A stretch of 64,000 nucleotides of DNA, from contig CAVQYU010000004.1 in NCBI GenBank assembly GCA_963718285.1, forward strand, positions 86,838 through 150,837, in the 5' to 3' direction. The stretch comes from an uncultured Chloroflexia bacterium (lineage in GTDB: Bacteria > Chloroflexota > Limnocylindria > Limnocylindrales > CSP1-4). Positions 11,684 through 39,086 of the stretch are shown in pieces (the stretch's first letter is position 1; every line of letters begins with the position of its first letter). The notes beneath the pieces were generated by a model. That model saw only the letters and a program-made list of their open reading frames with translations. It had not been told where the DNA came from and did no database searches. The translations under genes were made by a program, and so were the position numbers.

Positions 11684-11712
11684 ACTCGCCGCCACATCAC
11701 GAATAACGGGCG

Positions 11713-11790
11713 ATGATCGGGACGAGTACCCGTCGCGCGTCGGCACAGAGACCCGGTGGCTGGTGGAAACCGGGGCGACGGCGGTGGTGA
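11713..11790 (+). promoter_or_regulatory. Candidate trp operon leader peptide (25 aa) with tandem Trp codons
   Basis: atg atc ggg acg agt acc cgt cgc gcg tcg gca cag aga ccc ggt ggc TGG TGG aaa ccg ggg cga cgg cgg TGG tga = MIGTSTRRASAQRPGGWWKPGRRRW*. Lies between paralog B and trpE. Confidence 0.5.
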
Positions 11791-12027
11791 ATGGACCCGG
11801 GAGCCTCCGGACCGAACGGCGAGCTCGACGGGCTCACCCAGTAGGCTCCGGCGCAGAGCGCCAGCGATAGAGGGCAGCGCCGATCGAACCCAGAGGTGGC
11901 CAGGCCACCCGGCTCCGTCGGTCAGAGTGCGGCAGATTGCCGAAGGCGGGTGGTACCGCGGAAGGTTCGACCTTTCGTCCCTGGGACGAGAGGTCGTATT
12001 GATTCCCGAGGAGGCTTCGCCGCCACG

Positions 12028-13627
12028 ATGAGCATCACGGATCCGCTCAGCCTGACCGAGGCGAAGCGCCTCGCGGGGGGCGCCGACACCGTGCTCCTGC
12101 GGGCGACGCGGGACGCCGACCTGGAGACGCCGATCGGCGCGTTCCTGCGCCTCGACGATGGCGGCCCGGCCTACCTGCTCGAATCGGTCGAGGGAGGCGA
12201 GCGGCTCGGTCGCTACAGCTTCCTGGGCATCGGCCCGCGCCGTCTGCTCGAGGTCCGCGGCGACCGGGCGACGATCCAGGCACGGCCCTTGAGCGTCGAT
12301 CGGTTCGAGCCGGACCTGCCGGTCGACGACGCTCGAGTCGATCGACCCGCTCAGCACGCTGCGGGCGTTCCTGCCCCGCCGGCGGGTCCTGCCCCTCGAG
12401 GGCATGCCCCGGTTCACCGGGGGTGCCGTGGGGGCCCTGGCCTATGACGCCGTCAGCGCGTTCGAGCCGAGCGTGCCCCAGCCGGCCGGCGATCCGGTCG
12501 GCGTGCCCCACGCCGCGTTCATCGAGTCGGACCTGGTCATCGTCTTCGACCACCTGACCCACACGATCAGCGCGATCGCCTCGCTGCACACCGAGGTGCC
12601 CGACCTGGACGGCCGCTACCGGATCGCCGAACGGGCGATCTTCGAGGCGCTCGACCGGACATCCGGCCGTCGGCCTCCGAGATGGCCGGGACGGCGGCGG
12701 GGCCGGCTGGCCGGACCGCGGCTGCCGAGCGGTGGGCCCGCCGGGTCGCGACCTCGATCGAGGCAACGGCGACGAGCCTCGGGCGGGACCAGTACATCCA
12801 CGCCGTCGAGGTGGCCAAGGACGCGATCGCGGCCGGCGAGGCGATCCAGGTCGTGCTGGCCCGGCGCCAGTCGTTCGAGCTGCCACCCGGCGCCGACGGG
12901 CGACCGGTCGACGGCATCGGCCTGTATCGCGCCCTGCGCCGGGTGAACCCCAGCCCGTACCTGTTCTTCATCCGGACGCCGGCCTTCGAGGTCGTCGGCG
13001 CGAGTCCCGAGCTGCTCCTCCAGGTCGAGGGCGACCGCGCTGACCACCCATCCGATCGCAGGCACCCGACCACGGGGCGCGACGGCTGCGGAGGACGACC
13101 TGCGCAGCGAGGAGCTCCAGCGCGACCCGAAGGAGAAGGCCGAGCACGTGATGCTGGTCGACCTCGGCCGGAACGACCTGGGCCGGGTCGCCCGGGCGGG
13201 CACGGTCCGGGTGACCAAGTACATGGAGGTCGAGCGCTACAGCCACGTCCTGCACCTGGTCAGCCACGTCGAGGCCCGCCTCCGGCCGGACCTGGACGCG
13301 CTCGACGCGCTGCGCTCGGTCTTCCCGGCCGGAACCCTGTCCGGGGCGCCCAAGGTCCGGGCGATGCAGCTGATCGCCGCCGCGGAGAACGAGCGCCGGG
13401 GACTGTACGGCGGAGCGGTCGGCTACCTCGGCTACGACGGCAACCTCGACACCGCGATCACGATCCGGAGCGCCGTCCTGCGCGACGGGATCGCCCACGT
13501 CCATACCGGAGCGGGGATCGTCGCCGGCTCGGTGCCCGAGCGCGAGTTCGAGGAGACCGAGCACAAGGCGGCCGCCCTGCGCCGGGCGATCGAGCTGGCC
13601 GGTGGCGGGCCGGAGCGGCTGCGATGA
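12028..13627 (+). CDS. trpE: Anthranilate synthase component I; multiple apparent frameshifts
   Basis: [69 protein letters not shown]...; later frames ...[16 protein letters not shown]..., ...[26 protein letters not shown]..., ...[45 protein letters not shown]...[15 protein letters not shown]... Confidence 0.85.
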
Positions 13628-14317
13628 TCCTGGTCGTCGACAACTACGACTCGTTCACGTTCAACCTGGTCCAGGCCCTGGAGGCCGCCGGCGCCGAGGT
13701 TCGGGTCGTCCGCAACGACGCCATCGATCGGGCCGGGATCGAGGCCCTGGCGGCCGATCCGGCCAGCGACCTGCGCGGGATCGTGATCTCGCCCGGGCCG
13801 GGCGACCCGTCGGCCGCCGGCGTCTCGGTCGAAGCCATCCAGGTCGCGGCCGCGCACGCGATCCCGCTGCTCGGCGTCTGCCTCGGGATGCAGTCGATGG
13901 CGGTCGCCTACGGTGGCACGATCGTGCGCGCGCCGACCCTCGTCCACGGCGAGGCGTCCGAGGTGAGCCACGACGGGCCGGGCCTGCTCCGGGCTGCCGC
14001 CCTCGTTCATGGCCGCCCGCTACCACTCCCTGGCCGTGGATCCGGGGGCGATCCCGGCCGAGCTCCTGGTCACCGCGATCTGCGAGGAGGACGGCGTGGT
14101 CATGGGCCTCCGCCATGTGACCCTGCCCCTCGAAGGCGTCCAGTTCCATCCCGAGTCGGTCCTGACGCCCGAGGGGCCGCACCTCCTGGCCAACTTCCTG
14201 CGCCGGGCGGGCGAGGGCGAGGCCAGCCGGCTCGACGCGGTCAGCGGCAGCTTCGCGACCGGCGGCATGGCCGAGCCGCTCGACCGGGACGGCGGTCCGA
14301 TCGGGTCGAGCCGATGA
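13624..14317 (+). CDS. trpG: Anthranilate synthase component II (glutamine amidotransferase); apparent frameshift
   Basis: [35 protein letters not shown]...[10 protein letters not shown]...[24 protein letters not shown]...; C-terminal part ...[61 protein letters not shown] in another frame. ATGA overlap with the trpE stop. Confidence 0.8.
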
Positions 14318-15352
14318 GCGAGCTCGTCCGGGCGGCCCTGGCCACCGTGGTCGAGGGCGGCACCCTGTCGATCGACGAAGCCCGCGACGGCGATGGGCGC
14401 GGTGATGGATGGCGAGGCGACCCCGGCCCAGCTGGCGGCGCTGCTGGTGGCCCTCCGGATGCGCGGCGAGACGATCGACGAGCTGGCCGGGTTCGCCCTG
14501 GCGATGCGCGCCCGAGTCCTGCGGGTCGACGCCCCGGCCGGCGCGATCGACGTGGTCGGCACCGGGCGGTGACCGGAGTGGCACGTTCAACATCTCGACG
14601 ACGGCGGCCCTCGTCGTGGCCGCGGCCGGGGTGCCCGTCGCCAAGCACGGCAATCGGGCGATCACCTCGCGCTCGGGCTCGGCCGACGTCCTCGAGGCGC
14701 TCGGCGTGCGGACCGATCACGACGAGGTCTCGGCCGCCGCGTCGCTGCGGGCCGGGGGCTTCGCCTTCCTGTTCGCGCCCAGCTTCCACCCGGCCATGAA
14801 GTTCGCCGGGCCGACCCGGCGCGAGATTGGCGTCCGGACGGCGTTCAACCTGATCGGACCGCTGACCAACCCGGCCGGCGTGACCCGGCTGATGGTGGGC
14901 GTCGGTGACGAGGCGGCCGCGCCCCGGATCGCCGAGGTGCTTCGCCTGCTGGGCCAGGAACGGGCGATCGTCGTCCACGGCGCGGGGGTCGATGAGCTGC
15001 CCCTCGACGGGTCCGGCCTGATCCACGATGTGACGCCCGAGCGGGGTGGAGCTCCTGTCGATCGACGCGGAGCTGGTCCGCAGCCTGGGGCTGCGAGCCG
15101 GCCCCGACCGGGGCGTTGGCCGGAGGCAGCCCGGCCGAGAACGCGGCCCTCGTCGAAGGCGTCCTGGCCGGCGATCCCGGGCCGCGCCGGGACGTGGTCC
15201 TGCTCAATGCCGCCGCCGCGTTCGTGGCCGCCGGCCGCGCGCCGGACCTGTCCGCGGGCGTCCGGCTGGCTGCCGCGCACGATCGACGACGGCGCCGCCT
15301 CGGGTCCTGCTCGCCCACCTCCGGGCAGCAGCGCGCGGCGGCGTCGGCATGA
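14314..15352 (+). CDS. trpD: Anthranilate phosphoribosyltransferase; apparent frameshifts; end approximate
   Basis: [24 protein letters not shown]...[29 protein letters not shown]...[54 protein letters not shown]...[16 protein letters not shown]..., read in 3 frames. Confidence 0.8.
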
Positions 15353-15376
15353 CCCTGGCGCCAGCCCCGCCGAGCG

Positions 15377-16180
15377 GTGGTGGACGAGATCGCGGCCCGC
15401 CGGGCGGCCGACCTGGCCGTCGAGCTCGAGGGCGTGAGCCTGGCCCAGCTCGAGCGGGCCGCGGCCGCTGCCCCGCCGGCACGACCGGTGGTGGACCGGC
15501 TGGCCGCCCCGGGCCTGGCCCTCATCGCCGAGGTCAAGCGTGCCTCGCCCTCGGCCGGCCAGATCGTGCCGGCCGGCGATGATCCCGTCGCCCGGGCGCG
15601 GGCCTACGCGGCCGGCGGCGCGGCCGTGATCTCGGTCCTGTGCGAGCCGCACTGGTTCGGCGGCTCGGTCGACGACCTGCGCGCGGTCCGGGCCGCGGTC
15701 AGCGTGCCGGTCCTGGCCAAGGAGTTCGTGGTCGACCGACGGCAGCTGCCGCTCCTGCGGGCCGCCGGCGCCGACGTCGTCCTGCTCCTCGCCAGCCTCC
15801 ATCCCGCGCGCCCGCCTCGGGCGCCTGGTCGAGGCCGCCCTGGGCCTCGGCCTGGAGCCGCTCGTCGAGGCGCACGATCGAGCGCGAGCTGGAGCGGGCG
15901 CTCGCGACGCGGCGCTCGCCTGATCGGCCTGAACAACCGCGACCTGCGGACGCTGGCGGTCGACCCCGAGCGGGCGGTCCGCCTGCGCGAGCTGGTGCCC
16001 GACGACCGCCTGGTCGTGGCCGAATCGGGCGTGCGCGAGCCGGCGACGGTCGCCGGCTGGCGGGCCCTCGGCTTCGACGCCGCGCTGGTCGGCGAGGCGC
16101 TCATGCGGGCGGCCGATCCAGCCGCGGCGGCTGCGCGCGTTCGTGGCCGCCGGCCGCCTGCCCGAGGATCGTCGCTGCCG
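15377..16180 (+). CDS. trpC: Indole-3-glycerol phosphate synthase; apparent frameshifts; end approximate
   Basis: ...PGLALIAEVKRASPSAGQIVPAGDDPVARARAYAAGGAAVISVLCEPHWFGGSVDDLRAVRAAVSVPVLAKEFVVDRRQL...; later ...LIGLNNRDLRTLAVDPERAVRLRELVPDDRLVVAESGVREPATVAGWRALGFDAALVGEALMRA. Confidence 0.75.
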
Positions 16181-16895
16181 AGGACCGGACGCCGTTCGTG
16201 AAGATCTGCGGGGTCACCGACGCGCCGGGGCATGCAGGCGGCCCTGCGCGGCCGGGCGGACGCGGTCGGCCTGAACCTGGTCCCCGGCACGCCCCGGGCC
16301 CTCGACCTCGAGGAGGCGGTTGCCCTGGCCCGGCTCGCTCGGAGCACCGCTCAGCCGGGCGGCGGCCCGCGCATCGTGGCGATCACCGCCGACGCCGATC
16401 TGGCCCGGCTGGACGCGATCATCGCAGCCCTCGATCCGGACGTGGTCCAGCTCTCCGGCGATGAGCCCGCTGGCCTCGTCGCCCGGCTCGGACGGCCCGT
16501 CTGGAAGGCGATCCGGCTGCCGGCCGAGGTCAGGCCCGAGGAGGTCGACCGCCAGGCGGCCCGGGCCATCCGGGCCGGGCGGGCTTACCTTGACGCTGGC
16601 GTCGAGCGGATCCTGCTCGACACGGCCGGCGGACCGCATCCGGGCGGCACCGGGACGCGCTCCTCGGCAGGCCTGGCGGCGGCGGTCGCCCGCGCGCTGC
16701 CGGTGATCCTGGCCGGCGGGCTCAGCCCGGCGAACGTGGGCGAGGCGGTGCTGGCGATTCCGGCGGTCGGGCGTGGACGTCGCCTCGGGGGTCGAGGCGC
16801 CCCGGGTCGCGGGCGAGCGGCCGCGCAAGGATCCGCTCCGGGTGGCGCTGTTCGCCAAGCGCGCCCGGGCGGCGCGCTGGGACCGGCCCAACCTC
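16180..16895 (+). CDS. trpF: Phosphoribosylanthranilate isomerase; apparent frameshifts; boundaries approximate
   Basis: ...PFVKICGVTD..., MQAALRGRADAVGLNLVPGTPRALDLEEAVALARLAR...PRIVAITADADLARLDAIIAALDPDVVQLSGDEPAGLVARLGRPVWKAIRL...ILLDTAGGPHPGGTGT...LPVILAGGLSPANVGEAVLAIP...GVDVASGVE. Confidence 0.7.
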
Positions 16896-18212
16896 GCGGC
16901 CCGGCCGACGCCGGTCTTCGCCGGCCTGCTCGAGGCGGACGAGGCCGGCCGCTGGGGCTGCAACCGCGAGTTCGGCGGCCGCTACGTGCCCGAGACGCTG
17001 ATGGCGGCCCTCGAGGGACTCGAGCGGGCCTACTTCGGCCCTGCGTCACGATCCGCGCTTCTGGGCCGAGTTCCGGGCGCTCCTGGCGACCTACTCCGGT
17101 CGGCCCACCCCGCTCTACCGGGCCGATCGCCTGGCGGCCGCCGCGTTGGCCGAGGCCAGCCGGCAGGTCGGCGCCGATGGGCCCGCGCCCGGTCGGATCC
17201 CGGCGATCCTGCGCCTCTACCTCAAGCGCGAGGACCTCGGCCACACCGGGGCCCACAAGATCAACAACGCCCTGGGCCAGGCGCTGCTCACCCGGCGGCT
17301 GGGCAAGTCGCGGGTGATCGCCGAGACCGGGGCCGGCCAGCACGGCGTCGCCACGGCCACGGCCTGCGCCCTGCTCGACCTGCCCTGCGTCGTGTTCATG
17401 GGCGCCGAGGACATCCGGCGCCAGGAGCCCAACGTGCTGCGGATGCGCGCGCTGGGTGCCGAGGTCCGGCCGGTCACCTCCGGCTCGGCCACCCTCAAGG
17501 ACGCGGTCAACGAGGCGATGCGCGACTGGGTCACGAACGTCGAGACGACCCACTATGTCCTGGGCTCGGCGATGGGGCCGCATCCCTATCCGACAATCGT
17601 GCGCGACCTCCAGCGGATCCTGGGCGACGAGGCGGCGGCCCAGTTCCAGGCTGTCGAGGGCCGTCTGCCCGACCTCGTCCTGGCCTGCGTCGGGGGCGGC
17701 TCGAACGCGATCGGCCTGCTCGATCGGTTCATCGGCGAGCCGGCCGTCCGCCTGGCCGTGGCCGAGGCGGCCGGTGACGGGATCGCGACCGGCCGCCATG
17801 CGGCCGCCGCTGGCCGGGGGTACGCCCGGGATCCTCCATGGTTCGCGTTCGCTCATGCTCCAGGACGCCGACGGCCAGGTGATCGAGGCCCATTCGATCT
17901 CGGCCGGCCTCGACTATCCGGGGGTCGGTCCGCAGATCGCGGCGCTCCTGACCGCGCGGCCGGCTCGAGCTGGCCGCGGCGACCGATGCCGAGGCGCTGG
18001 CGGCGCTGCGCCAGGTCGCCCGGCTCGAGGGGATCCTGCCGGCCCTCGAGACCGCCCACGCCTTCGCCGTCCTGCCCCGCCTCATCGCCGGCATCGAGGG
18101 CTCGGGCGCGGCCTATCCCGACGAGACGGCGATCCTGGTCGGCTTGTCGGGGCGGGGCGACAAGGACCTGGCCGCCCTGACCCTCGAGCCTGGCCGCGTC
18201 CGGAGCCCCCGG
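16895..18212 (+). CDS. trpB: Tryptophan synthase beta chain; apparent frameshifts; boundaries approximate
   Basis: ...[24 protein letters not shown]..., [84 protein letters not shown]...[28 protein letters not shown]..., ...[12 protein letters not shown]. Confidence 0.8.
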
Positions 18213-19058
18213 ATGACGACCGGGCTGATCGAGCAGGGCACGAACGGGACCGCCGGCGCCCGACGCATGGCCACCGCGTTCAGGCGGGCGGCCGGGGACG
18301 GCCGGATTGCCCTGATTCCGTACCTCGTGGCCGGCTATCCGGACGCCGAAACGAGCTTCCGGATCGCCCTGGCCGCGGCCGACGCCGGGGCCGACCTGCT
18401 CGAGGTGGGCCTGCCCTATTCCGATCCGCTGGCCGATGGGGCGACCCTCCAGCGGGCGTCGCAGGTGGCTCTGGCGGCCGGCGCGACGCTGGCCGGCTCG
18501 ATCGCCCTGCTCGAGCGCATCGCCGCCGCCCGGCCGGACCTTCCAATCGTGCCGATGGCCTACGCGAACCAGGTGATCGGGGGCGGAGACGGTGCCCGGA
18601 CGGCGGGCCAGCTGGCGACGGCCGGGGCGTCGGGCGTGATCGTGGCCGACCTGACCCCGGACGAAGGCGGCCGCTTCGAGGCGGTTGCCCGGGACGCCGG
18701 CCTGGCCGTCGTCTACCTCGTGGCGCCGACCACCCGGCCGGATCGACGGGCGCGCATCGCGGCCCGCTCGGGAGGCTTCCTGTACTGCGTCTCGCTGGTC
18801 GGGGTGACCGGCGCCCGGACGTCGTTGCCGAGCTCGGTCGGCCGGCTGGTCCGCGAGGTCAAGGCGGCCTCGCCCGTGCCGGTCGCGGTCGGCTTCGGGG
18901 TGAGCCGGCCCAGCCACGTCCGGGCGATCGCGGCCGCCGGAGCCGACGGCGTGATCGTGGCCTCTGCCCTGGTCGACGCCCTGGGCCCCCACGGCCGCGA
19001 TGTTAGGGCATTGTCCGAGCTCGTCCGCGCGCTTCGCGCCGCCACCGGGCGCGGGTAA
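18213..19058 (+). CDS. trpA: Tryptophan synthase alpha chain
   Basis: MTTGLIEQ...[63 protein letters not shown]...[16 protein letters not shown]...[32 protein letters not shown]. Contiguous. Confidence 0.85.
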
Positions 19059-19086: not shown

Positions 19087-19386
19087 TCAGTCGCTGGACC
19101 GGTCGTGCTGCTCGAGCGCGCGGGTCGCTGCGATCAGGCGCCGATAGATCGCCAGCAGGTCGGCCTGGGCGAGCGGCCCGAGATTGGCCAGGGCGACCCG
19201 CAGGAGGACCTCGCGCTCGCGTTCGATGTCCCGGACGGCGCGCCGGCCGCTCGACCGCTTGACCCGGCCAACCTGCCGGCCGAGCTCGGCCCGGTCGTTG
19301 AGGAGGCCCACGATCCGGCGATCGAGCGCGTCGATCCGGCGGCGCAGGCGGCGCAGCTCAGGCGTCTCGTCGACCGATTTGGTCAT
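19087..19386 (-). CDS. Chorismate mutase (small AroQ-class, ~99 aa)
   Basis: MTKSVDETPELRRLRRRIDALDRRIVGLLNDRAELGRQVGRVKRSSGRRAVRDIEREREVLLRV.... Last gene of the minus-strand aro operon. Confidence 0.7.
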   Translation of the reverse strand: MTKSVDETPELRRLRRRIDALDRRIVGLLNDRAELGRQVGRVKRSSGRRAVRDIEREREVLLRVALANLGPLAQADLLAIYRRLIAATRALEQHDRSSD

Positions 19387-19829
19387 CCGCCCAGCTCACC
19401 GTCGGCGGCCCGTCGGGCGATCGACTCGAGGGCCGTCGAGTAGCCCTCCGCGCCGTGGCCGACGATCGACTCGAGGGCGATGTCGGCCAGGAAGTTGACC
19501 TGCCGGAATGGCTCCCGGGTGGCCGGGTCCGAGAGGTGGACCTCGATGAACGGCCGCTCGACCGCCAGCAGGGCATCGCGCAGGCTGACGCTGGTATGGG
19601 TCAGGCCGCCGGCGTTGACGATCGCCACGTCGAAGTCCTTGCGCTGGACCCGGTCGATCAGGGCGCCTTCATAGTTCGACTGGAAGAAGTCGATGGCCAG
19701 GCCGAGGTCGCTCGCCTTCGCACTCAACCCGGCGTGGATCTCGGCCAGGGTCGCTCGCCCGTAGATCGCGGGCTCGCGCGTGCCCAGCAGGTTCAGGTTG
19801 GGGCCTTCGAGGACCAGGACGCTGGTCAT
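19383..19829 (-). CDS. aroQ: 3-dehydroquinate dehydratase, type II
   Basis: MTSVLVLEGPNLNLLGTREPAIYGRATLAEIHAGL...AIDFFQSNYEGALIDRVQRKDFDVAIVNAGGLTHTSVSLRDALLAVERPFIEVHLSDPATREPFRQVNFLADIA. Confidence 0.85.
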   Translation of the reverse strand: MTSVLVLEGPNLNLLGTREPAIYGRATLAEIHAGLSAKASDLGLAIDFFQSNYEGALIDRVQRKDFDVAIVNAGGLTHTSVSLRDALLAVERPFIEVHLSDPATREPFRQVNFLADIALESIVGHGAEGYSTALESIARRAADGELGG

Positions 19830-20965
19830 CGTCCGACCGACCCGGCCAGGCTCGGGGCCGGGGCCAGGAGCTCATCCGCGACCCTTGCCACCAGCTCGGG
19901 CGGCACGTCGCTCCGGATCTCGACTCCGCCGGCCGATGGCAGGACCCAGCGCAACTGGCCGTCGGCATGCTTCTTGTCTCCGGCCAGGGCGTCCAGCACG
20001 GCCGACCGGTCCAGGCCAAGGGCGGCCAGGCCGCCCGCCGGGGCCAGGGCCAGGTGGGTCAGGAGGCCTTCGATCCGACTGGCGCGATCGGCTGGTGTGA
20101 CCCCCAGCTCGAGCCCGATCCGGCAGGCCGCCCGCAGTCCGTAGGCCACGGCCTCCCCGTGGAGCAGCCGTTCGCCATAGCCGGCCGCCGCCTCGAAGCC
20201 ATGGCCCAGCGAATGGCCCAGGTTGAGCTTCAGCCGGCCCGCCGCTTCGCGCTCGTCGGCCTGGACGATCTCGATCTTGGCCCAGGCACAGCGTTCGACG
20301 AGCTCGGCCAGGGCCCCATGAGCGATCACCGACGCGTGCGCCCGGATGATCCCCTGGCCATCGCGCTCGAGCAGCTCGAACAGGGCCTCGTCCCCCAGGG
20401 CCGCCATCTTGACCGCCTCGCCCAGGGCGGCCCGTCGGTGTCGTTCCGGCAGGCCGGCCAGGACATCGACGTCGATCAGGATCGCGGCCGGCTGGTGGAA
20501 GGCGCCGAGCAGGTTCTTGCCGCCGGCCAGATCGACCGCCGTCTTGCCCCCAATCGAGCTGTCGAGCTGGGCGACCAGGGTGGTCGGGACGTGGATCAGG
20601 GGCACCCCGCGCAACCAGGTTGCAGCCAGGAAGCCGGCCGCGTCGCCCAGGGCCCCGCCGCCCAGCGCCACCAGCGGCTCGGCCCGCTCGAGGCGGAGCC
20701 TGGCCAGCTCGTCGGCGGCTGCCTCGATCACGCTCAGGCGTTTGGCCGCTTCGCCCGACGGCAGCAGGATCCGCTCGACGGTCAGGCCGGCACCAGCCAG
20801 GCCGGCGGCCAGGTCCTCGCCCACGGCCGCCCAGGCGACTGGCTCCGAGACGATCACCGCTCGGCGCGCCCCGAGCTCGGCCAGGCTGGCTTGGAGGGCT
20901 GTGAGCAGGAAGCCCGTCCCGATCCGGAGCCGGCCCAGGCTCGAAATCCGCCGCCAGCAGGACCG
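19826..20965 (-). CDS. aroB: 3-dehydroquinate synthase; N-terminal region frameshifted; start approximate
   Basis: ...LGRLRIGTGFLLTALQASLAELGARRAVIVSEPVAW..., LVALGGGALGDAAGFLAATWLRGVPLIHVPTTLVAQLDSSIGGKTAVDL...NLLGAFHQPAAILIDVDVLAGLPERHRRAALGEAVKMAAL...LKLNLGHSLGHGFEAAAGY..LLHGEAVAYG. Confidence 0.8.
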   Translation of the reverse strand, partial: RSCWRRISSLGRLRIGTGFLLTALQASLAELGARRAVIVSEPVAWAAVGEDLAAGLAGAGLTVERILLPSGEAAKRLSVIEAAADELARLRLERAEPLVALGGGALGDAAGFLAATWLRGVPLIHVPTTLVAQLDSSIGGKTAVDLAGGKNLLGAFHQPAAILIDVDVLAGLPERHRRAALGEAVKMAALGDEALFELLERDGQGIIRAHASVIAHGALAELVERCAWAKIEIVQADEREAAGRLKLNLGHSLGHGFEAAAGYGERLLHGEAVAYGLRAACRIGLELGVTPADRASRIEGLLTHLALAPAGGLAALGLDRSAVLDALAGDKKHADGQLRWVLPSAGGVEIRSDVPPELVARVADELLAPAPSLAGSVGR

Positions 20966-20969
20966 CGCC

Positions 20970-21491
20970 GGGCGCGGCCGGCTCGACCAGGAATGCGTCG
21001 AGGCGGTCCAGGACCGCCCCGACCTGGGACAGCCCGTTGAGCCGCAGGCCCGGGGCGTAGAAGCGCTCGCGCTTCACGGCCAGATCGCGGATCGCGCCAA
21101 CCGGGTCGCGGCCCTGGAGGAGGGGCCGCGGGTTGGGCGAGTTGCGCAGGCGCTGGGCCAGGACCTCGGGCGGGCTGTTGAGCCAGGCCACCCGGCGGTC
21201 GCGGTAGAGTGCCCACCGATTGGCCGGATCTACGACGGCGCCACCGCCCGTGGCGATGACCCGGCGCAGCTCGGGCGCCGGGTCGGGGCGGCCCAGGCCG
21301 GCCACCGCGATCCGCTCGCGGGCCCGGAAGCCGGTCTCGCCCTCGGCCTCGAACAGCTCGGCGATCGTCATCCCGGCGCTGGCCTCGATCGTTGCGTCGA
21401 GGTCGATGAAGCGAGCGTCGTGGCGGGCGGCCAGCCGCCGTCCGACAGCAGTCTTGCCGCTGCCGGGCAGGCCGACGAGGACGAGATCCAT
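20970..21491 (-). CDS. aroK: Shikimate kinase; 3' end approximate (runs into aroB, possibly fused or frameshifted)
   Basis: MDLVLVGLPGSGKTAVGRRLAARHDARFIDLDATIEASAGMTIAELFEAEGETGFRARERIAVAGLGRPD...RVIATGGGAVVDPANRWALYRDRRVAWLNSPPEVLAQRL. Confidence 0.75.
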
Positions 21492-21500
21492 CAGGCCGGC

Positions 21501-22814
21501 CTAGTCGTCGCCGCCGGAGCCGGCTTCGCCGTCTTCGGTCGGACCGGAACGGGCGCCCGCCTCTCCGGCTCCCGCCGTGCGCGGCCCGCCGGCGACCGGC
21601 GGCTCGGGCGCCTGGGCAATCCGGGCCTGATAGGTGGCCAGGTTGGCTCGCGTGTCATCGATCGAGTCGCCGCCGAACTTGTCGAGCACGAAGTCGGCCA
21701 GGATGAGCATGACCATGGCCTCGGCGACGACCCCGGCGGCGGGCACGACGCTGATGTCGCTCCGCTCGTAGTGAGCCTTGTCGACCGTCTCGCCGGTGAT
21801 CAGGTCGGCCGATGGCAGGGGCCGGGCCAGGGTGGAGATGGGCTTGACCGCCCCACGGACGACCAGCGGCTCGCCATTCGTGACCCCGCCGGTCAGGCCG
21901 CCGGCGTTGTTCGAGCGATGGATCCAGCGGCCACCCTCGCCCCGGCCGGCGATGACGTCATGGACGGCCGAGCCGAAGCGGCGGGTCTGCTCGAAGCCGA
22001 GCCCAAACTCCACGCCCTTGACGATGTTGATGCTCATGACCGCCGCAGCCAGGGCGGCATCGAGCCGGCGGTCCCAGTGGACGTAGCTGCCGAGGCCGAT
22101 CGGCAGGCCGTGGGCCACGACCTCGAACACGCCCCCGACGGTGTCCCCGTTCGCGCGGGCCTCGTCGATCCGGGCGATCATCCCGGCCTCCGCCTCGGGA
22201 TCCGGGCAGCGCAGCGGCAATTCGTCCGCTTCGGCCTGGCTTCGGCTGGCCCTGGCCGGATCCACGGCCACCCCACCGACCTCGGCGGTGAACGACCAGA
22301 CCTCGATGCCCAGCTCGGCCAGGAAGAGGCGAGCCACGCCGCCGGCGGCGACCCGAGCCGCCGTCTCGCGGGCGGACGCTCGCTCGAGCACGTCGCGGAC
22401 GTCGTTGAAGCCGTATTTCAAGGCGCCGGCCAGGTCGGCGTGGCCGGGCCGCACCCGGGTCACCGGGGTCGCTCGCTTGTTGCCCGCCTCGGCCAGGCCG
22501 GCCAGCTCGTCGGCCTCGGCGGCACCGAGCGGCTCGACCTGCATGACTCGGGTCCAATTCTCCCAGTCCCGATTGCGGACCAGGAGCAGGATCGGTGAAC
22601 CAAGCGTTCGACCGTGGCGAACGCCGGCCAGGATCTCGGCCCGGTCGTGCTCGATCGCCTGGCGGGCACCGCGCCCGTAGCCGCGCTGGCGGCGGGCCAG
22701 GTCGAGCGCGATCGCGTCGGCGGTCACGGTCAGACCGGCGGGCACCCCTTCCAGCGTTACCCCGAGGGCCGGTCCGTGCGACTCGCCGGCCGTCAGGAAC
22801 CGGAGCCGGCCCAT
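21501..22814 (-). CDS. aroC: Chorismate synthase (437 aa, intact, C-terminal Gly/Ala/Glu-rich extension)
   Basis: MGRLRFLTAGESHGPALGVTLEGVPAGL...DLARRQRGYGRGARQAIEHDRAEILAGVRHGRTLGSPI...GHADLAGALKYGFNDVRDVLERASARETAARVAAG...GDTVGGVFEVVAHGLPIGLGSYVHWDRRLDAALAAAVMSINIVKGVEFGLGFE. Confidence 0.9.
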   Translation of the reverse strand: MGRLRFLTAGESHGPALGVTLEGVPAGLTVTADAIALDLARRQRGYGRGARQAIEHDRAEILAGVRHGRTLGSPILLLVRNRDWENWTRVMQVEPLGAAEADELAGLAEAGNKRATPVTRVRPGHADLAGALKYGFNDVRDVLERASARETAARVAAGGVARLFLAELGIEVWSFTAEVGGVAVDPARASRSQAEADELPLRCPDPEAEAGMIARIDEARANGDTVGGVFEVVAHGLPIGLGSYVHWDRRLDAALAAAVMSINIVKGVEFGLGFEQTRRFGSAVHDVIAGRGEGGRWIHRSNNAGGLTGGVTNGEPLVVRGAVKPISTLARPLPSADLITGETVDKAHYERSDISVVPAAGVVAEAMVMLILADFVLDKFGGDSIDDTRANLATYQARIAQAPEPPVAGGPRTAGAGEAGARSGPTEDGEAGSGGDD

Positions 22815-23700
22815 CTAGGCCTCCGCGGCCACGCCGGTCGGCTCGCCCTCGGCCGACTCGATCCCCTCCGCCCGGGCCGCCGTGAGGGCGCCCTCCATGA
22901 CCTCCAGCGGAGCCGGCTGCCCGGTCCACAGGGTGAAGGCCGCGGCGCCCTGGTGGAGGAGCATCGTCGCCCCATCGGCCACGGTGGCGCCATTCGCCGC
23001 GGCATCCCGGAGCAGCTGGGTCCGGCGGTAGATCAGGTCCAGCACGAGCAGGTCGGCCGGGATGATCTCGCCGGGGATGGGCGATTCGTCACCGTGCAGG
23101 CCGATCGATGTCGCGTTGACCAGGACCTTGGTCTTGGCCAGCTCGGCCTCGATGATCGACTCGTGCCAGGGCATCGCCTTGAGCTCCATGTGGGCGGCAC
23201 TCTTGCCAAAGAACTTGACCAGCGACTCAGCCCGATGCAGGTGGCGATTGAAGACGATGATCCGGATGAAGCCGGCCGTGATCAGGCCGTGGATCACCGC
23301 CCGGCTGCCGCCCCCGGCCCCGAACACGACCGCCTGGCGGGGCATCTTCTGGCGGCCGACCAGCTTGTCGATCGCCTGCTTGAAGCCGGGCACATCGGTG
23401 TTGTGGCCGATCAGGCGCTTGCCCTCGCGGGTGATCGTGTTGACCGCGCCCGTGGCGTGGGCGTCCTCGGTCAGGCGATCGACCAGGGGCACCACCCGCT
23501 CCTTGTGCGGGATCGTGACGTTGGCGCCCAGGAACTCGTCCGAGCGCAGCTCGGCGATGGCGTCGGCCAGGTTGATCGGGGGCCGATCCCAGAGCTCATA
23601 GCGGGCATCGATCCCGAGCGAATCGAAAGCGGCCTGCTGCATCGCCCCGGACAGCGAATGATTGACCGGATGGCCGATCAGGACGACCCGCTTGGTCATG
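22815..23700 (-). CDS. aroE: Shikimate dehydrogenase (NADP+)
   Basis: [89 protein letters not shown]...GHNTDVPGFKQAI...QAVVFGAGGGSRAVIHGL. Confidence 0.85.
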
Positions 23701-25085
23701 CTCGCACTCCTTCGAGTACCGCGAAGAACCCGGGATAGGAGATCGACGCGCAGCCCGGATCGCTGATCGTCGTGGCGCCCGTGGCGATGAGCCCGGCAAT
23801 GGCGAAGGTCATGGCCAGGCGATGGTCGGAGCAGCTGTCGGTGGAGGCGCCAACCAGCGTGGTCGGCCCGGTGATCAACAGGTCGTCGCCGTCTACCGTG
23901 ACGTCCGCGCCGAGTGCGCGCAGCCCGCGGGCAATCCCGGCGATCCGGTCGGACTCCTTGGTCCGCAGCTCGCCCGCGCCCCGGATCGTGGTCGTGCCGC
24001 GGGCCTGGCTGGCGGCCAGGCACAGGATCGGGATCTCATCGATCGCCTGGGCCACGTCGGCCGCTGAGACGTCGATCGCCTGGAGCTGACTCGAGCTGGC
24101 CGTGAGGTTGGCCAGCGGCTCGCCGGTCTGGGCGTCGTGCCTCGCGCCCGCGATCGGCTCCTCCTCGATCCGGGCGCCCATCGGACGAGGAGGTCGATGA
24201 TCGCCCGGCGGGTGGGGTTGACACCGACGCCGGCAAGCTCAGCCGGCGTCGGGGTGGATCGCGCCGGCGACCAGCCAGAAGGCGGCGGCCGACGGATCAG
24301 CGGGCACGACCTCGTCCAGCGGTTGCACGGACCCGCCGCCGGCTCCAGACTGACCGACACCTGCCCGTCCCTCGATTGCTCGCTCAGCACCGCGATCCCG
24401 CGCGCCCGGAGCATCCGCTCGGTGTGATCGCGGGTCGCGACCGCTTCGCGCACCGTGCGTCCGGCCCTCCGCCGCGCAGGGCGGCGAGCAGGATGGCCGA
24501 CTTCACCTGGGCGCTGGGGACGCCGTCATAGAACTGTCGATCGCCCGGAGCGGGGTGTGACCGACCACGGTCATCGGCAGGAGGGTGTTGGACCGGCGCG
24601 CGTGGACTTCGGCACCCATCGCTCGCAGTGGCTCGATGATACGGGCGAGGGGTCGTCGGCGCAACGAGGCGTCGCCGTCGAGGACGTGGTAGCCGGGCAG
24701 CCCGGCCAGGATCCCGGCGATCAGCCGGGTGGTCGTCCCGGAGTTGCCGCAATCGAGGATCCCGTCCGGCCTCGTGAAGCCCGTCGATGCCCGGCGAGAC
24801 GACCAGGTAGTCGACCCGGCGGCCGTCACCGGCCCGCCGCTCGACGCTCGCTCCGAGCTGGCTGATCAGGCCGGCGGTGGTCCGCACGTCGGCGCCGTCG
24901 CCGGCTGCATGGATCTCCGAGCGCGCCGTTGGCCAGCGGCGGCCAGGAGCAGGGCCCGATGGCTGATCGACTTGTCGCCGGGCAGGCCGGGGCTGGCCGC
25001 GCAGGCGGGCGGCGGGGCGGACGCCGGCCACGTCCGGCTCTGGCCCGCCGGCCAGGTTGGGCTGGATCACGGCGGTCATTGCCTG
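23696..25085 (-). CDS. aroA: 3-phosphoshikimate 1-carboxyvinyltransferase (EPSP synthase); several apparent frameshifts; start approximate
   Basis: ...[48 protein letters not shown]...; ...[14 protein letters not shown]...; C-terminal ...[54 protein letters not shown]...[39 protein letters not shown], in 3 frames. Confidence 0.8.
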
Positions 25086-25094
25086 GCCCCGCCG

Positions 25095-26154
25095 ACCTTG
25101 AGCACGGCGTTCGGCAGGACCGGATCGCCGTGGCAGGTCGCCAACCTGGGCGTGGACGGCCCGCAGGCCGGTCATCAGGTCGGCGAACTGGTCGAGGGTG
25201 ATCGACTGCTCGCCGTCGGACAGCGCCTCGTCCGGCCGCGGGTGGACCTCGACCATGACCCCGTCGGCGCCCGCCGCCACCCCGGCCATGGACATCGGCT
25301 TGATCAGCCAGCGCTTGCCGGTCGCGTGGGACGGGTCGACGATCACCGGCAGGTGGGTCAGGTGGTGGAGGAGAGGCACGGCCGCCAGGTCGAGCGTGTT
25401 GCGGGTGTACGTCTCGAAGGTGCGGATGCCCCGCTCGCACAGGATCACGTTCGGGATTGCCCGAGCTGACGATGTACTCGGCGGACATCAGCCACTCCTC
25501 GATCGTGGCCCCGTAGCCGCGCTTGAGCATGACCGGCCGGCTGACCCGGCCGACGGCCGTCAGGAGCGAGTAGTTCTGCATGTTCCGGGTGCCGACCTGG
25601 AGGATGTCGGCGTACTCGGCCACGATGTCGACCTGGTTCGGCTCCATCACCTCGGTGATGACCGGCAGGCCGGTCGCGCTCGCGCTCCTCGGCCAGGTAG
25701 CGCAGGCCTTCGACGCCCAGGCCCTGGAAGGAGTAGGGGCTGGTGCGCGGCTTGAAGGCACCGCCCCGGATGATCGTGGCCCCGGCGGCGATTGACCCCG
25801 TCGACCGTCTCCCGGAGCTGCTCCCGGCTCTCGATCGAGCAGGGCCCGGCCATCACCGTCAGGCCTGCCGTCGCCGATCGACCGCGTCGAGGATCCGGAT
25901 GACCGTGTCCTCGGGATGGAACTCGCGCGAGGTAAGCTTGAACGGGCGGCTGATCGGGGTGACCGTCTCGACCCCGCCGAGCGCCTCCAGGCGGCTGATC
26001 AGGACCGGCTTGCGGGCGCCGATCTCGCCGACGACGGCGATCACGACGCGCTGCTCGCCGACGTGGTCGTACGGCTGAGTCCCTCGGCCAGGATCAGGCT
26101 CTTGACCGCGTTCGCCTCGGCCGGAGTGGCCGTGGCACTCATCACCACGAACAT
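25095..26154 (-). CDS. aroG: DAHP synthase, type I-beta, with an N-terminal FL regulatory domain (Thermotoga DAHPS architecture); apparent frameshifts; boundaries approximate
   Basis: N-terminal [26 protein letters not shown]...[57 protein letters not shown]. Core [13 protein letters not shown]...[72 protein letters not shown]...[81 protein letters not shown]. Confidence 0.8.
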
Positions 26155-26215
26155 CGCTGCTGCGCGTCCTTTCGCGTCGGTTCAGGGCTGCTGCGCGCTG
26201 GCCGGACCTCGCTCG

Positions 26216-26250
26216 GCCAACAAAAAAAGCAGAGGTCTGACCTCTGCTCA
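26216..26250 (-). terminator. Intrinsic terminator (attenuator) between the aro leader peptide and the DAHP synthase start
   Basis: Minus-strand sequence gggatgaGCAGAGGTCagaCCTCTGCTTTTTTTgttgg: a 9-bp GC-rich hairpin immediately followed by T7, ~45 nt upstream of the DAHPS start codon. Confidence 0.6.
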
Positions 26251-26294
26251 TCCCGGCACGACCCGTGCTCCCGGGTCTCAGTCTCCGGGTTCGG

Positions 26295-26333
26295 TCATGC
26301 CGGGCGTTGGTAGGTAAAAAAGAGGGTGTGCAT
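26295..26333 (-). promoter_or_regulatory. Candidate aro operon leader peptide (12 aa) rich in Phe/Tyr: MHTLFFTYQRPA
   Basis: Minus-strand atg cac acc ctc ttt ttt acc tac caa cgc ccg gca tga. GGAG is 6 nt upstream of the ATG. The stop lies ~45 nt upstream of the terminator hairpin. Confidence 0.55.
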
Positions 26334-26345
26334 GTGCGTCTCCGA

Positions 26346-26375
26346 ACGGTAGTCGAGGGCGAGCGCCGCTGTCAA
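26346..26375 (-). promoter_or_regulatory. Candidate sigma-70-like promoter for the aro leader/operon
   Basis: Minus-strand TTGACA (26375-26370), an 18-nt spacer, then TACCGT (26351-26346). The -10 is very close to the leader ATG, so the leader would be nearly leaderless. Speculative. Confidence 0.3.
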
Positions 26376-26696
26376 CGCGCGTAGCGTGCGAGTCCTTGGC
26401 CCGTCGCCGGTTTCTGTGCGTGTCGTGGCCGGCCGAGCCTCGCTGGTGCTCGCCACGCGACAAAAGGCGCCGGGCCGACCGAGCCGACCCTCTTTTGAGC
26501 CCGCGCGGCGCCAATCATGCACGACCTGAGCGTGGTTCGGGACAGGTTCGCGACCCGGCCTGGCCAACGCGTGCTCCGGCGAGTCGAATCGCGGCGTTTG
26601 TCGCACCCCACGCACCGTCGTGGCCGTCGCGGCCCGTCCGGACCCGCCCCCAAGTCGCCCTCGGACCTCATGCTATTCTGGCCGCCGCGGTTCCGC

Positions 26697-26788
26697 GGAG
26701 AGGTCGCATAGAGGCCTAGTGCAGCGGTTTGCTAAACCGCCAAGTGGGGTAACCTGCTTCGAGGGTTCGAATCCCTCCCTCTCCGCCA
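26697..26788 (+). tRNA. tRNA-Ser(GCU), type II
   Basis: ggagaggtcgcatagaggcctagtgcagcggttTGCTaaaccgcc...gagggttcgaatccctccctctccgcca. Anticodon loop uuGCUaa. Confidence 0.8.
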
Positions 26789-26798
26789 CTCTCGCATT

Positions 26799-26874
26799 GC
26801 GCCCGTAGCTCAGCGGATAGAGCGTTAGGTTGCGGACCTAAAGGTCGTGGGTTCGAGTCCCGCCGGGCGCGCCA
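26799..26874 (+). tRNA. tRNA-Arg with anticodon GCG as read (unusual; ACG expected)
   Basis: gcgcccgtagctcagcggatagagcgttaggTTGCGGAcctaaaggtcgtgggttcgagtcccgccgggcgcgcca. The cloverleaf folds cleanly: anticodon stem ttagg/cctaa, loop uuGCGga. Confidence 0.7.
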
Positions 26875-27262
26875 GCATCTCCCCATCGGGCCCGCCATCC
26901 TTGGGTCCCAAGCTGCACCCTGCCAAGGCCTGGTTCTGGGTCCTACCTCCCGCACTCAGGCTGCGGCCTGACCCTTAGCCACGCTCGATGCGATTCCAGC
27001 GCGCGCCCAACGTGCGCCCCGGAGCCCGACCTGCGTCCGGAGCGCCCTGGTGTGCGTCCGGCGCGCGTAGCTCACCAGGGCCGGCCCCGATTGGTCGTCC
27101 GGTTGCCCCGGACGCACGAGCTCGCCCGATCCAGGTCGAATTTGGTCGAATCTGTGCACGGCACGCACGAAATCGACTAGACATCGGGGAAACACGTCAG
27201 TTGTGCGCTTCACACGCACGTCTACCCGGCCACGACCTGAGGCCGCCGGCCTGACCTCCGGC

Positions 27263-28132
27263 TCAGGTGGCCGCCAGCATGATGTGGGCGATCGAGCCGA
27301 CCCGCAGGCCATCGCGTCGCCCGTCGAAATAGCGCTGGTTGATGGCCCGGCCGTCGAGATCCACGATCCGGTTGGCCCCCAGCGAGGCGAGTCCCTGCTG
27401 CAGCTCATCCGGATCGAAGAATGCCGTCCAGGGCTCGCCTGCCCGGCCGACGCGGTTGGCGAAGCGCGACACGATCAGCCGCTCGATCGGATTGAGCCGG
27501 CCCGGCGAGAGCGCGTAGTCGAACACGACCGCGCTGCCTGGCGGGCGGTCCATCAGGTAGCCGAGGACCGACCAGACCGACGACTCGGCCAGGTACATCG
27601 TGACCCCTAGCCAGGCGAAGATGGCCGGTTCGTCCGGGCGAAAGCCGGCGGCCAGCAGCTCATGGTCGAGGCGCTGCTGGTCGAAGTCGACGGCGACGAA
27701 GGTCACGCCGGCTGAGTCGTCCGGGAGCCCGATCCCGGCCATGTGCAGGCAGGCCCGCTTCCAGGCTTGGGTGGCCGGGTGGTCGACCTCGAAGACGTGC
27801 ACATGGGCCAGCGGATTGCGATAGGCGAACGTGTCCAGACCGGCACCCAGGACGACGTACTGGCGGACGCCGCCCGCCGCGGCGGCCAGGGTGTCTTCGG
27901 CATAGCGACTGCGGGCAACAAGGAAGGCTCGCAACGCCCGGGCCACCGGCTGCTGCTCGGGGCTGGGCGGGAAGCGACGCCTGGCCCGCTCCTCGAGAGC
28001 CGCCCGCTCGCCGGCTCCGATGATTCGGAGAGCGAGGGGATCGTCGAGGACCAGGGGGTCGTCGAGCAGCTGGTGGGCCGCCCGCCGCCGCGCGACGCCG
28101 AGGGCCGTTCGGCTGGGTCGAGCCGGGATCAT
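27263..28132 (-). CDS. Class I SAM-dependent methyltransferase (LCM/O-methyltransferase-like, mycobacterial Mb/ML-type family), intact
   Basis: 289 aa: ...RSRYAEDTLAAAAGGVRQYVVLGAGLDTFAYR...VHVFEVDHPATQAWKRACL...VTFVAVDFDQ...PAIFAWLGVTMYLAE... Confidence 0.65.
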   Translation of the reverse strand: MIPARPSRTALGVARRRAAHQLLDDPLVLDDPLALRIIGAGERAALEERARRRFPPSPEQQPVARALRAFLVARSRYAEDTLAAAAGGVRQYVVLGAGLDTFAYRNPLAHVHVFEVDHPATQAWKRACLHMAGIGLPDDSAGVTFVAVDFDQQRLDHELLAAGFRPDEPAIFAWLGVTMYLAESSVWSVLGYLMDRPPGSAVVFDYALSPGRLNPIERLIVSRFANRVGRAGEPWTAFFDPDELQQGLASLGANRIVDLDGRAINQRYFDGRRDGLRVGSIAHIMLAAT

Positions 28133-38849: not shown

Positions 38850-39086
38850 TCGGCCTCGCGCCCCCGGAATTGCCGGGTCTCCGCTCGGGCCGGATCACCG
38901 GTCCACCCGTCCCCGTCGTTTGACAGGGCGGGTTCCGATGCGTCAACATTGACGCTTGCGCCCGGTGCATTCGTGCCCCGGACCGCTGCACCTTAACAAT
39001 TGAAGAGTGACAGGAAATCCGGGTAAGGAAATGTGCGAGCGGTCAAACCCTCGAAATTGGAGTCCCGGCCGCAAGGTCGGGTCTTT

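Follow-up and report, generated by a model that had tools for sequence, protein, structure and literature searches.

The aro operon and its leader

The stretch analysed here (the window) is 64 kb of DNA, 70% G+C, from an uncultured Chloroflexia bacterium of the Limnocylindria (contig CAVQYU010000004.1). Its minus strand carries a complete aro operon of seven genes, one per shikimate step, which together cover all seven steps to chorismate and run from 26154 to 19383. The first gene encodes a DAHP synthase (DAHPS) and is preceded by a compact leader made up of a promoter, a 12-codon open reading frame (ORF1) with Phe and Tyr codons, a mini-ORF (ORF2) that overlaps the end of ORF1, a hairpin (P1) that encloses an inner hairpin (P1a), and an intrinsic terminator (T) (Table 1). 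This leader is probably a ribosome-mediated transcription attenuator of the aro operon, which would sense charged tRNA-Phe and tRNA-Tyr, and tRNA-Trp in some relatives; the reading is well supported because the element is conserved, is linked to DAHPS and has a codon-level signature.

Once corrected for frame, the DAHPS protein matches PF00793 (DAHP_synth_1, E 4e-81) and PF18152 (the DAHPS ferredoxin-like (FL) domain, E 2.9e-10), and it can be aligned over its full length with the Thermotoga maritima DAHPS (1RZM/3PG9). ORF1 reads ATG CAC ACC CTC TTT TTT ACC TAC CAA CGC CCG GCA TGA, with three aromatic codons among the 11 that follow the start in the pattern FF-Y; at a background frequency of 4.8% the chance of three or more aromatic codons among 11 is 0.014. 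The ORF1 stop lies 46 nt before T, the end of the U-run 67 nt before the DAHPS ATG (26154), and the two start codons are 179 nt apart. The leader has a z-score of -2.4 relative to shuffled sequences and folds into three helices, P1, P1a and T, with a 4-nt spacer between P1 and T. A near-identical 12-codon leader, MHTNFFAYQRPA, is found on an independent contig (L190) and is the closest copy; because it has the same layout, the window leader is not an assembly artefact despite its homopolymer runs.

The terminator scan reported GAGCAGAGGTCAGACCTCTGCTT plus a T-run at 26249-26227, the seven U residues ending at 26222. Hairpins of -12 kcal/mol or lower followed by at least five U occur only twice in the window, both strands considered, and T is one of them. 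The other, at 39084 on the plus strand, stands 3 nt before the start of the 16S rRNA (39087); rather than a terminator, it is probably a processing stem or a piece of the rRNA leader. No further attenuator of the same build was found in the 64-kb window.

An earlier note on this DNA, made from the letters alone, had described a Phe/Tyr leader peptide and an intrinsic terminator as a ribosome-mediated attenuator of a DAHPS-led operon, a proposal now backed by comparative and codon-level evidence. Its coordinates and sequences for the 12-codon ORF and the terminator are correct, as are the distances it gave from the leader ATG to DAHPS (about 180 nt) and from the ORF1 stop to the terminator (about 45 nt), and the FL regulatory domain that it ascribed to the enzyme is borne out by the PF18152 match and the full-length alignment with 1RZM. 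Other figures have to be revised: of the five aromatic codons counted there, three are found (F, F, Y), His not being a product of the pathway; the operon has seven genes and not eight; and the terminator ends 67 nt, not about 45 nt, before the DAHPS start.

Table 1. Coordinates of the aro leader and operon features, numbered from the first letter of the window
Feature	Position	Strand	Basis or remark
-35 hexamer TTGACA of leader promoter	26370..26375	-	read in sequence; TTGAC(A/G/T) in relatives
-10 hexamer TACCGT, 18-nt spacer after -35	26346..26351	-	read in sequence; 12 nt before leader ATG
Leader ORF1 MHTLFFTYQRPA + UGA stop, 12 codons	26295..26333	-	ORF reading; conserved in relatives
Two Phe codons UUU UUU (proposed sensor codons)	26316..26321	-	UUU bias in relatives' leaders
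Tyr codon UAC, last aromatic codon, 5 nt before P1	26310..26312	-	spacing conserved
P1 5' arm CCCGGCAUGACC, holding ORF1 stop UGA and ORF2 AUG (AUGA overlap)	26293..26304	-	minimum free energy and centroid structure
Mini-ORF2 AUG ACC GAA CCC GGA GAC UGA (MTEPGD*), stop in P1a loop	26278..26298	-	frame conserved
Inner hairpin P1a (CCCGG-N10-CCGGG), enclosed by P1	26270..26289	-	folding
P1 3' arm GGUCGUGCCGGG	26252..26263	-	folding, conservation
Intrinsic terminator T: GCAGAGG 26247-26241, loop, CCUCUGC 26235-26229, U7 26228-26222	26222..26249	-	terminator scan, folding
DAHP synthase type I-beta with N-terminal FL domain, operon gene 1	25140..26154	-	frame-corrected protein
EPSP synthase, shikimate dehydrogenase, chorismate synthase, shikimate kinase, dehydroquinate (DHQ) synthase, DHQ dehydratase II (type II dehydroquinase)	19383..25140	-	Pfam matches, ORF translations

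Conservation of the leader and its linkage to DAHPS

Relatives were collected by a protein-guided scan restricted to one genome per species, which gave 80 loci. In 30 of these the DAHPS is 70-83% identical to that of the window, the sources being metagenome-assembled genomes (MAGs) of Candidatus Limnocylindria / Chloroflexota. The complete element lies upstream of DAHPS in 28 of the 30 related loci; one locus (L024) is without it and the sequence of another (L001) is cut within it. The comparison of related aro leaders that the earlier note had suggested thus finds the ORF and its aromatic codons conserved at these 28 loci. A second set came from metagenomes, where a DNA pattern that combined the arms of P1 with the T 5' arm matched at least 120 stretches, about 109 of which are true elements with a full terminator; they comprise 91 distinct leader ORFs.

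Linkage to DAHPS is close to complete. Among the listed contigs with enough downstream sequence, an FL-type DAHPS starts 23-115 nt after the T-run in 97 of 98, mostly at 27-55 nt and with a median distance of about 38 nt. A gap this short cannot accommodate a second promoter for DAHPS, and since the DAHPS start follows T so closely the operon would be expressed only by reading through T.

The geometry of the element reaches further than its sequence. A sister subfamily in other Chloroflexota (L054, L057 and L066) has different P1 and T sequences arranged in the same way: P1 begins 5 nt after the last aromatic codon and has the stop codon at its foot, and T follows it after 4-5 nt. The motif UCRUGCC of the P1 3' arm is retained even in these three distant loci and in L039.

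Codon evidence for a proposed aromatic sensor

The leader ORF is uniform in frame and length and variable in content. ORF1 has 11 codons in 73 of the 91 distinct leaders listed from metagenomes and 12 codons in 12 of them, and in the 28 genome loci and the 91 listed leaders alike the start codon is ATG or GTG and the final triplets read ...CCG GCA TGA throughout. Between these limits the 91 leaders carry two to five aromatic codons each, usually three or four, which brings the aromatic share of leader codons to 33%, compared with 4.8% in the DAHPS genes of the relatives. Phe, Tyr and Trp replace one another in identity and order, with synonymous changes as well (FYF, YWF, FWY, FFFY, YRF, YTF), and FYF is the commonest motif. 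Since the aromatic residues vary in this manner, the pattern is that expected of hungry-codon sensing of the three end products of the pathway, rather than of a specific peptide or RNA motif.

Codon choice points the same way. The ratio of UUU to UUC among Phe codons is 1:265 in 28 DAHPS genes and 27:29 in 29 genome leaders (Fisher 1e-22), and in the listed metagenome leaders the rare codon is tied to one position: the last aromatic codon is UUU in 61, UAC in 17, UAU in 11 and UUC in one, while the earlier Phe codons are mostly UUC. In 86 of the 91 listed leaders exactly four codons (x-x-Pro-Ala) separate the last aromatic one from the stop, which places the aromatic codon 5 nt from the base of P1. 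A metagenome variant (L114) has UGA in place of the CGA that follows the last aromatic codon, so that its ORF1 ends immediately after ...WFYF; the change is a natural experiment on the spacing rule or else an error in sequencing.

Promoter and start of ORF1

Upstream of the leader start codon, TTGAC(A/G/T) is found at 38-43 nt in all 28 related loci with the element, and the -10 hexamer of the relatives stands at the same place as in the window and reads TACCGT, TAGTGT, TATCGT or CACACT. The conserved promoter can be summarised as TTGACA, a spacer of 17-18 nt and TAnnnT (or CACACT), with the start codon 8-13 nt after the -10 hexamer; a consensus scan had passed over the window -10, just three of its six bases agreeing with TATAAT. 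From this spacing we infer a transcription start near 26339 in the window and a 5' untranslated region (5'UTR) of about 6 nt; in the family as a whole the 5'UTR is predicted to be about 3-6 nt long, possibly zero in some relatives, so that ORF1 would be near-leaderless. The GGAG that the earlier note placed 6 nt before the ORF1 ATG is indeed present, at 26343-26340. Its reading as a Shine-Dalgarno (SD) sequence is not supported, because the GGAG is not conserved in relatives and it coincides with or precedes the transcription start that the conserved promoter implies.

Leader peptides translated with no SD sequence have been reported in Deinococcus deserti (PMC4007540), for the ilvB gene of Corynebacterium glutamicum (as cited in PMC4046766) and among the mycobacterial leaderless poly-Cys small ORFs (bioRxiv 10.1101/834739). 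Like ORF1 these peptides are about 10 amino acids long, begin at the 5' end of the transcript or beside it, lack an SD sequence and are enriched in the relevant amino acid. They belong to other amino acids, genes and phyla, and have 0-1 nt before the AUG, compared with the 3-6 nt predicted here from promoter spacing alone.

Hairpin P1 and the overlapping mini-ORF

P1 and T are the most constant parts of the leader. Across 29 genomes their positions are 98% paired, compared with 35-50% when the 3' partners are slid; the 9-bp core of P1 is invariant and paired in 29 of 29 sequences, and the arms of T are invariant as well. The only pair that varies is the one that extends P1 by one step, and it is GC in 52, GU in 20 and AU in 13 of 115 listed leaders. 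The interior of P1a, by comparison, takes 99 distinct sequences in the same 115 leaders, all of which fold as a hairpin of 6-13 bp. The spacer between P1 and T is 2-8 nt long and shrinks to 0-4 nt in 115 of 115 listed leaders once both helices are extended.

ORF2 is present in all of the 91 listed metagenome leaders with CAUG. It has six codons in 80 of them and two, five or seven codons in the others, and its stop codon is UAG in 52, UGA in 33 and UAA in five listed leaders. The stop is located within the P1a loop, except that the two-codon cases (L014, L023) have it before P1a, and it stands 30-42 nt upstream of T; it is found 5, 14, 17 or 20 nt from the ORF1 stop, with the frame kept at each distance. 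Where the AUG is lost (GGCACGC..., in L020, L089 and L132) the leader is one codon longer, no frame-conserved stop occurs in the loop and there is no ORF2. In L039 one ORF passes through the P1 5' arm (GGC AUG ACG) to the apical loop, and because this single ORF spans arm to loop, the division into ORF1 and ORF2 looks derived and L039 seems to resemble an unsplit ancestor. ORF2 could serve either to hand the ribosome over so that P1a is opened, or as a safeguard stop against re-initiated translation through T; under either role, its conservation is indirect evidence that ribosomes would reach the ORF1 stop.

In one subclade (L005, L006, L009, L018, L021 and others) the sequence GUUUGGCCCGACCGACC after the T-run is, by eye, largely complementary to the P1 3' arm and the spacer. 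An mRNA that extends past T could in this way hold the terminator within a long helix. Other subclades do not conserve this sequence.

Search for an antiterminator

Classical attenuation requires an alternative pairing that occupies terminator bases, and the earlier note had accordingly assigned the leader to the classical pheL architecture, offering the hairpins cccgg...ccggg and gcacgg...gtgcc as possible antiterminators. These hairpins lie wholly upstream of T and share no bases with it, and neither P1 nor P1a overlaps T. The classical label is not supported: no overlapping antiterminator was found, pseudoknots being looked for by eye, the regulatory codons are outside segment 1 and no SD sequence is conserved.

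Pairing of the T 5' arm was evaluated in transcripts ended just before the T 3' arm, with the bases under the ribosome masked. In the E. coli trpL control the probability that the 5' arm is paired was 0.62 with the ribosome stalled and 0.03 with the ribosome at the stop, and in three leaders from Acidobacteriota (L059, L065, L072) it was 0.73-1.0 with the ribosome on the regulatory codons and 0.32-0.39 at the stop. The Limnocylindria leaders gave 0.08-0.6 when stalled (mostly 0.2-0.4) and values at the stop that were not lower in most (0.17-0.87); in the sister subfamily (L054, L066) the figures were 0.24-0.44 stalled and about 0.5 at the stop. The mutually exclusive structures that the earlier note had envisaged were therefore not recovered, a ribosome on the aromatic codons bringing no extra sequestration of the 5' arm.

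A hidden classical antiterminator is nevertheless the alternative that survives best, and it is unlikely. It might consist of the aromatic-codon stretch CUUCUACUUU paired with the spacer and T 5' arm GAAGCAGAGG, extending P1, or of a pseudoknot. In ribosome-free shortened Limnocylindria transcripts the T 5' arm is indeed paired with the aromatic codons, at a probability of about 0.8 in most homologues; purines dominate the 5' arm in all subfamilies and pyrimidines the codons, and such pairing could account for the invariance of T. The duplex is, however, no better than in composition-matched shuffles in 27 of 29 leaders and is weak next to T, and a stalled ribosome would cover it, which would give termination on starvation, the wrong regulatory direction. 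The stalled models, moreover, leave the 5' arm free, while the same method detects genuine antiterminators.

Several other candidates were set aside. Kissing loops between P1a and T, a P1 internal loop that mimics the T 5' arm and TRAP-like GAG repeats were not conserved by eye; the complementarity between the sequence 3' of T and the P1 3' arm belongs to one subclade only and would be transcribed too late to matter; and frameshifting (at a hungry codon, or a UUU-CGA +1 shift that would carry translation through T) has no tie to aromatic limitation and is not general. Rfam gave no match to the leader in 25000-28000 at E <=10, where only tRNAs and chance matches appeared, and the whole-window search gave no match in the leader at the gathering threshold.

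Proposed mechanism

When Phe and Tyr are plentiful, the ribosome would run into P1, as the ORF1 stop lies in its 5' arm, and the AUGA start could carry it six more codons into P1a, keeping P1 open; with P1 open, T would fold freely and transcription would end. When Phe or Tyr is scarce, the ribosome would stall, preferentially at the last, slow aromatic codon, where P1 would begin at about +12 from the P site, at the mRNA entrance. P1 would then stay intact and the polymerase would read through. Read-through on stalling is assumed because the device would otherwise make no physiological sense, and a direction from starvation to read-through would agree, as far as the analogy goes, with the C. 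glutamicum aroR precedent (PMC11802643).

The step by which an intact P1 would defeat T has to be deduced. It can be imagined that P1 loops out about 50 nt and so leaves the stalled ribosome only 0-8 nt, counted along the RNA, from the T 5' arm, where the terminator stem could not be completed in the RNA polymerase exit channel. A ribosome that melts P1, aided by the AUGA stop-start hand-over to ORF2, would collapse this bridge and the terminator would work. The invariant sequences of P1 and T would, on such a model, reflect contacts with the ribosome or the polymerase and not alternative pairings. An attenuator with no RNA antiterminator, in which P1 serves as a steric bridge, is a speculation, possible but on balance doubtful. 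It is favoured among the candidates for this step because the stalled and the untranslated states differ only by the ribosome at the foot of P1, and because spacing is tightly constrained to either side of P1. The same step may instead involve a pseudoknot or other pairing that escaped recognition, a direct influence of the neighbouring P1 helix, or a ribosome that acts as a 5' stabiliser.

A number of observations weigh against the attenuator interpretation or against this version of it. No classical antiterminator was found by ribosome-masked folding of the family leaders, with pseudoknots inspected by eye only, and the T 5' arm stays mostly free in the stalled state, although the same method detects the antiterminators of trpL and of three Acidobacteriota leaders. 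Equilibrium folding of full-length leaders with ribosome masks forms T whether the ribosome is absent, stalled or at the stop, a procedure that keeps the terminator in the E. coli trpL control too and so does not discriminate. P1 and T are so nearly invariant that covariation cannot prove either helix, the metagenome pattern required the P1 and T 5'-arm sequences and that set is silent on their variability, and the sequences are phylogenetically related, so that the counts overstate independence. A 5'UTR of 3-6 nt with no SD sequence is an unusual start context. The window assembly is rich in indels, the DAHPS gene shifting frame at least six times between 26154 and about 25140, though these breaks look like sequencing error rather than pseudogenisation. 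Where transcription starts, that ORF1 and ORF2 are translated, that T terminates and how amino acids act on the operon are predictions from sequence. The literature consulted offered no precedent for the steric model, and nothing specific was found there on attenuators that lack an antiterminator or on leader peptides in Chloroflexi.

Three further explanations were weighed. In the first, the stalled ribosome and P1 would act as a 5' stabiliser of the ermC type that shields the read-through mRNA from 5'-end-dependent decay and so raises expression on starvation, T being a constitutive partial terminator. Because ORF1 is near-leaderless a stalled ribosome would cover the entire 5' end, and the failure to find an antiterminator fits as well. 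This explanation is nonetheless very unlikely: it has no use for an ORF1 stop and an ORF2 inside P1, for the exact 5-nt spacing to P1 or for the 0-4 nt between P1 and T, and a strong canonical terminator, otherwise very rare here, argues that T is regulated.

An arrest peptide resembling TnaC, which would sense free aromatic amino acids and stall at ...P-A-UGA so as to keep P1 open and allow termination, is less probable again. The ...Pro-Ala-UGA end is invariant in the main family and at a fixed distance from the aromatic cluster, and the model gives the right direction with no antiterminator, provided that P1, when intact, is itself anti-terminating. Against it, the aromatic residues change too freely in order and identity for a peptide sensor (FYF, YWF, FWY, YRF, YTF), the P-A-stop is missing in the sister subfamily (...FYG*, ...YYT*) and is accounted for by the sequence of the P1 arm, and the strong preference for UUU is a signature at the level of the codon, not of the peptide. 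Finally, it is hardly credible that ORF1 is incidental and that P1 and T make up a regulatory RNA that binds a protein or ligand, or else a separate small RNA gene, with a binding site as the reason for the invariance: the arms are invariant amid variable flanks and Rfam has no match, but start, frame, length, aromatic enrichment, synonymous variation and rare-codon bias are kept in more than 100 sequences, the ORF2 frame is held with all three stop codons, and the short gap after T leaves DAHPS no promoter of its own. Ribosome-mediated attenuation driven by stalling at aromatic codons thus remains the preferred reading.

Neighbouring genes and assembly

The indels of the assembly extend beyond the aro operon. 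The trp genes at 12682-19058 on the plus strand are likewise split into overlapping ORFs, and the same problem affects L021, a long-read MAG, whose protein was unusable as a reference for counting frameshifts as it is itself frameshifted. Genes for tRNA-Ser(GCU) and tRNA-Arg(GCG) lie at 26697-26874 on the plus strand, divergent from the aro leader promoter, and the synteny with tRNA-Ser is kept in at least nine relatives (L006, L008, L009, L011, L014, L017, L022, L028, L046).

The trp operon is convergent to the aro operon. A T-box leader is found 5' of trpE at 11704-11985 on the plus strand (RF00230, 63.5 bits, E 1.3e-13, under the gathering score of 93); it contains GGGUGGUACCGCG, and a promoter-like TTGACG-18-TAGACT precedes it at 11657-11686. 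Since this leader lies upstream of trpE, the trp operon is read as tRNA-sensed, and within one window the trp operon would therefore be controlled by a T-box and the common aro operon by a leader peptide.

Significance and comparison with known systems

The existence of such an element is unsurprising, leader-peptide attenuation being textbook knowledge and FYF leaders of DAHPS being known in Corynebacterium. It documents the logic of aromatic amino acid control in Limnocylindria, an uncultured and abundant class of soil and freshwater Chloroflexota, and combines in one window a leader peptide, a trp T-box and allostery through an FL domain. The architecture, common to more than 100 natural variants, falls outside the standard four-segment model, with no bases shared between P1 and T, spacing fixed to the nucleotide on both sides of P1, a position-specific, ultra-rare codon that marks the stall site and two mini-ORFs that overlap at AUGA. 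This makes a well-defined, easily mutable test case for the question whether an RNA bridge lets a ribosome block a distant terminator, and the interest would be higher if the antiterminator-free bridge mechanism were true.

Aromatic-rich leader ORFs (MGTLTRTTSSYFYFTPESAHRL, MAAYAQSFYWFRFW and others) also stand before FL-type DAHPS genes in at least six other phyla, among them Methylomirabilota, Rokubacteria, Acidobacteriota, Calditrichota and Gemmatimonadota (L032, L035, L039, L059, L063, L065, L070, L072, L074), an observation that should help metagenome annotation. In three of four Acidobacteriota leaders (L059, L065, L072) the folding test detects a classical antiterminator. Because other phyla have DAHPS leaders, and at least those of the Acidobacteriota behave classically in this test, the Limnocylindria build would therefore be a lineage-specific variant of a widespread theme.

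The aro leader resembles the T-box (RF00230) in that it would make an aromatic pathway operon depend on tRNA charging; it has no T-box sequence, specifier architecture or Rfam match, and appears to use a translated ORF instead. With trpL and pheL-pheA it has in common a leader with codons for the end products, a terminator before the first gene, a hairpin that overlaps the end of the ORF and ribosome position as the input. Leaders of the trpL/pheL type have four segments, a 2:3 antiterminator that shares terminator bases, regulatory codons in segment 1 and an SD sequence, whereas here the codons are 5 nt upstream of P1 (86 of the 91 listed leaders), a stalled ribosome would leave P1 intact and no bases are shared.

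The pyrBI and pyrE leaders of E. coli are attenuators of the coupling type; the ORF of the pyrBI leader continues across the terminator, which the ribosome physically covers. If the steric bridge applies, the likeness to pyrBI would be that the bulk of a ribosome behind the polymerase, and not an alternative pairing, defeats the terminator. The two differ in that ORF1 ends about 46 nt upstream of T, so that proximity would have to come from the looping out of P1.

The closest known relative is the aroR-aroF system of C. glutamicum (Neshat et al. 2014, as described in PMC11802643 and PMC4046766), in which a leader peptide with Phe-Tyr-Phe lies upstream of DAHPS and transcription is reported to rise when ribosomes stall at the FYF codons under Phe limitation. 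In both cases an aromatic leader directly precedes DAHPS, and FYF, the commonest motif of the Limnocylindria family, is represented in the window by FF-Y. The likeness is one of description, as aroR is portrayed in those accounts, and it joins Actinomycetota with Chloroflexota. Compared with aroR-aroF as described there, the leader studied here serves an FL-domain DAHPS and a complete seven-gene operon by way of a near-leaderless ORF of 11-12 codons; the stop codon of this ORF lies within a hairpin, a second mini-ORF overlaps it and no antiterminator was detected.

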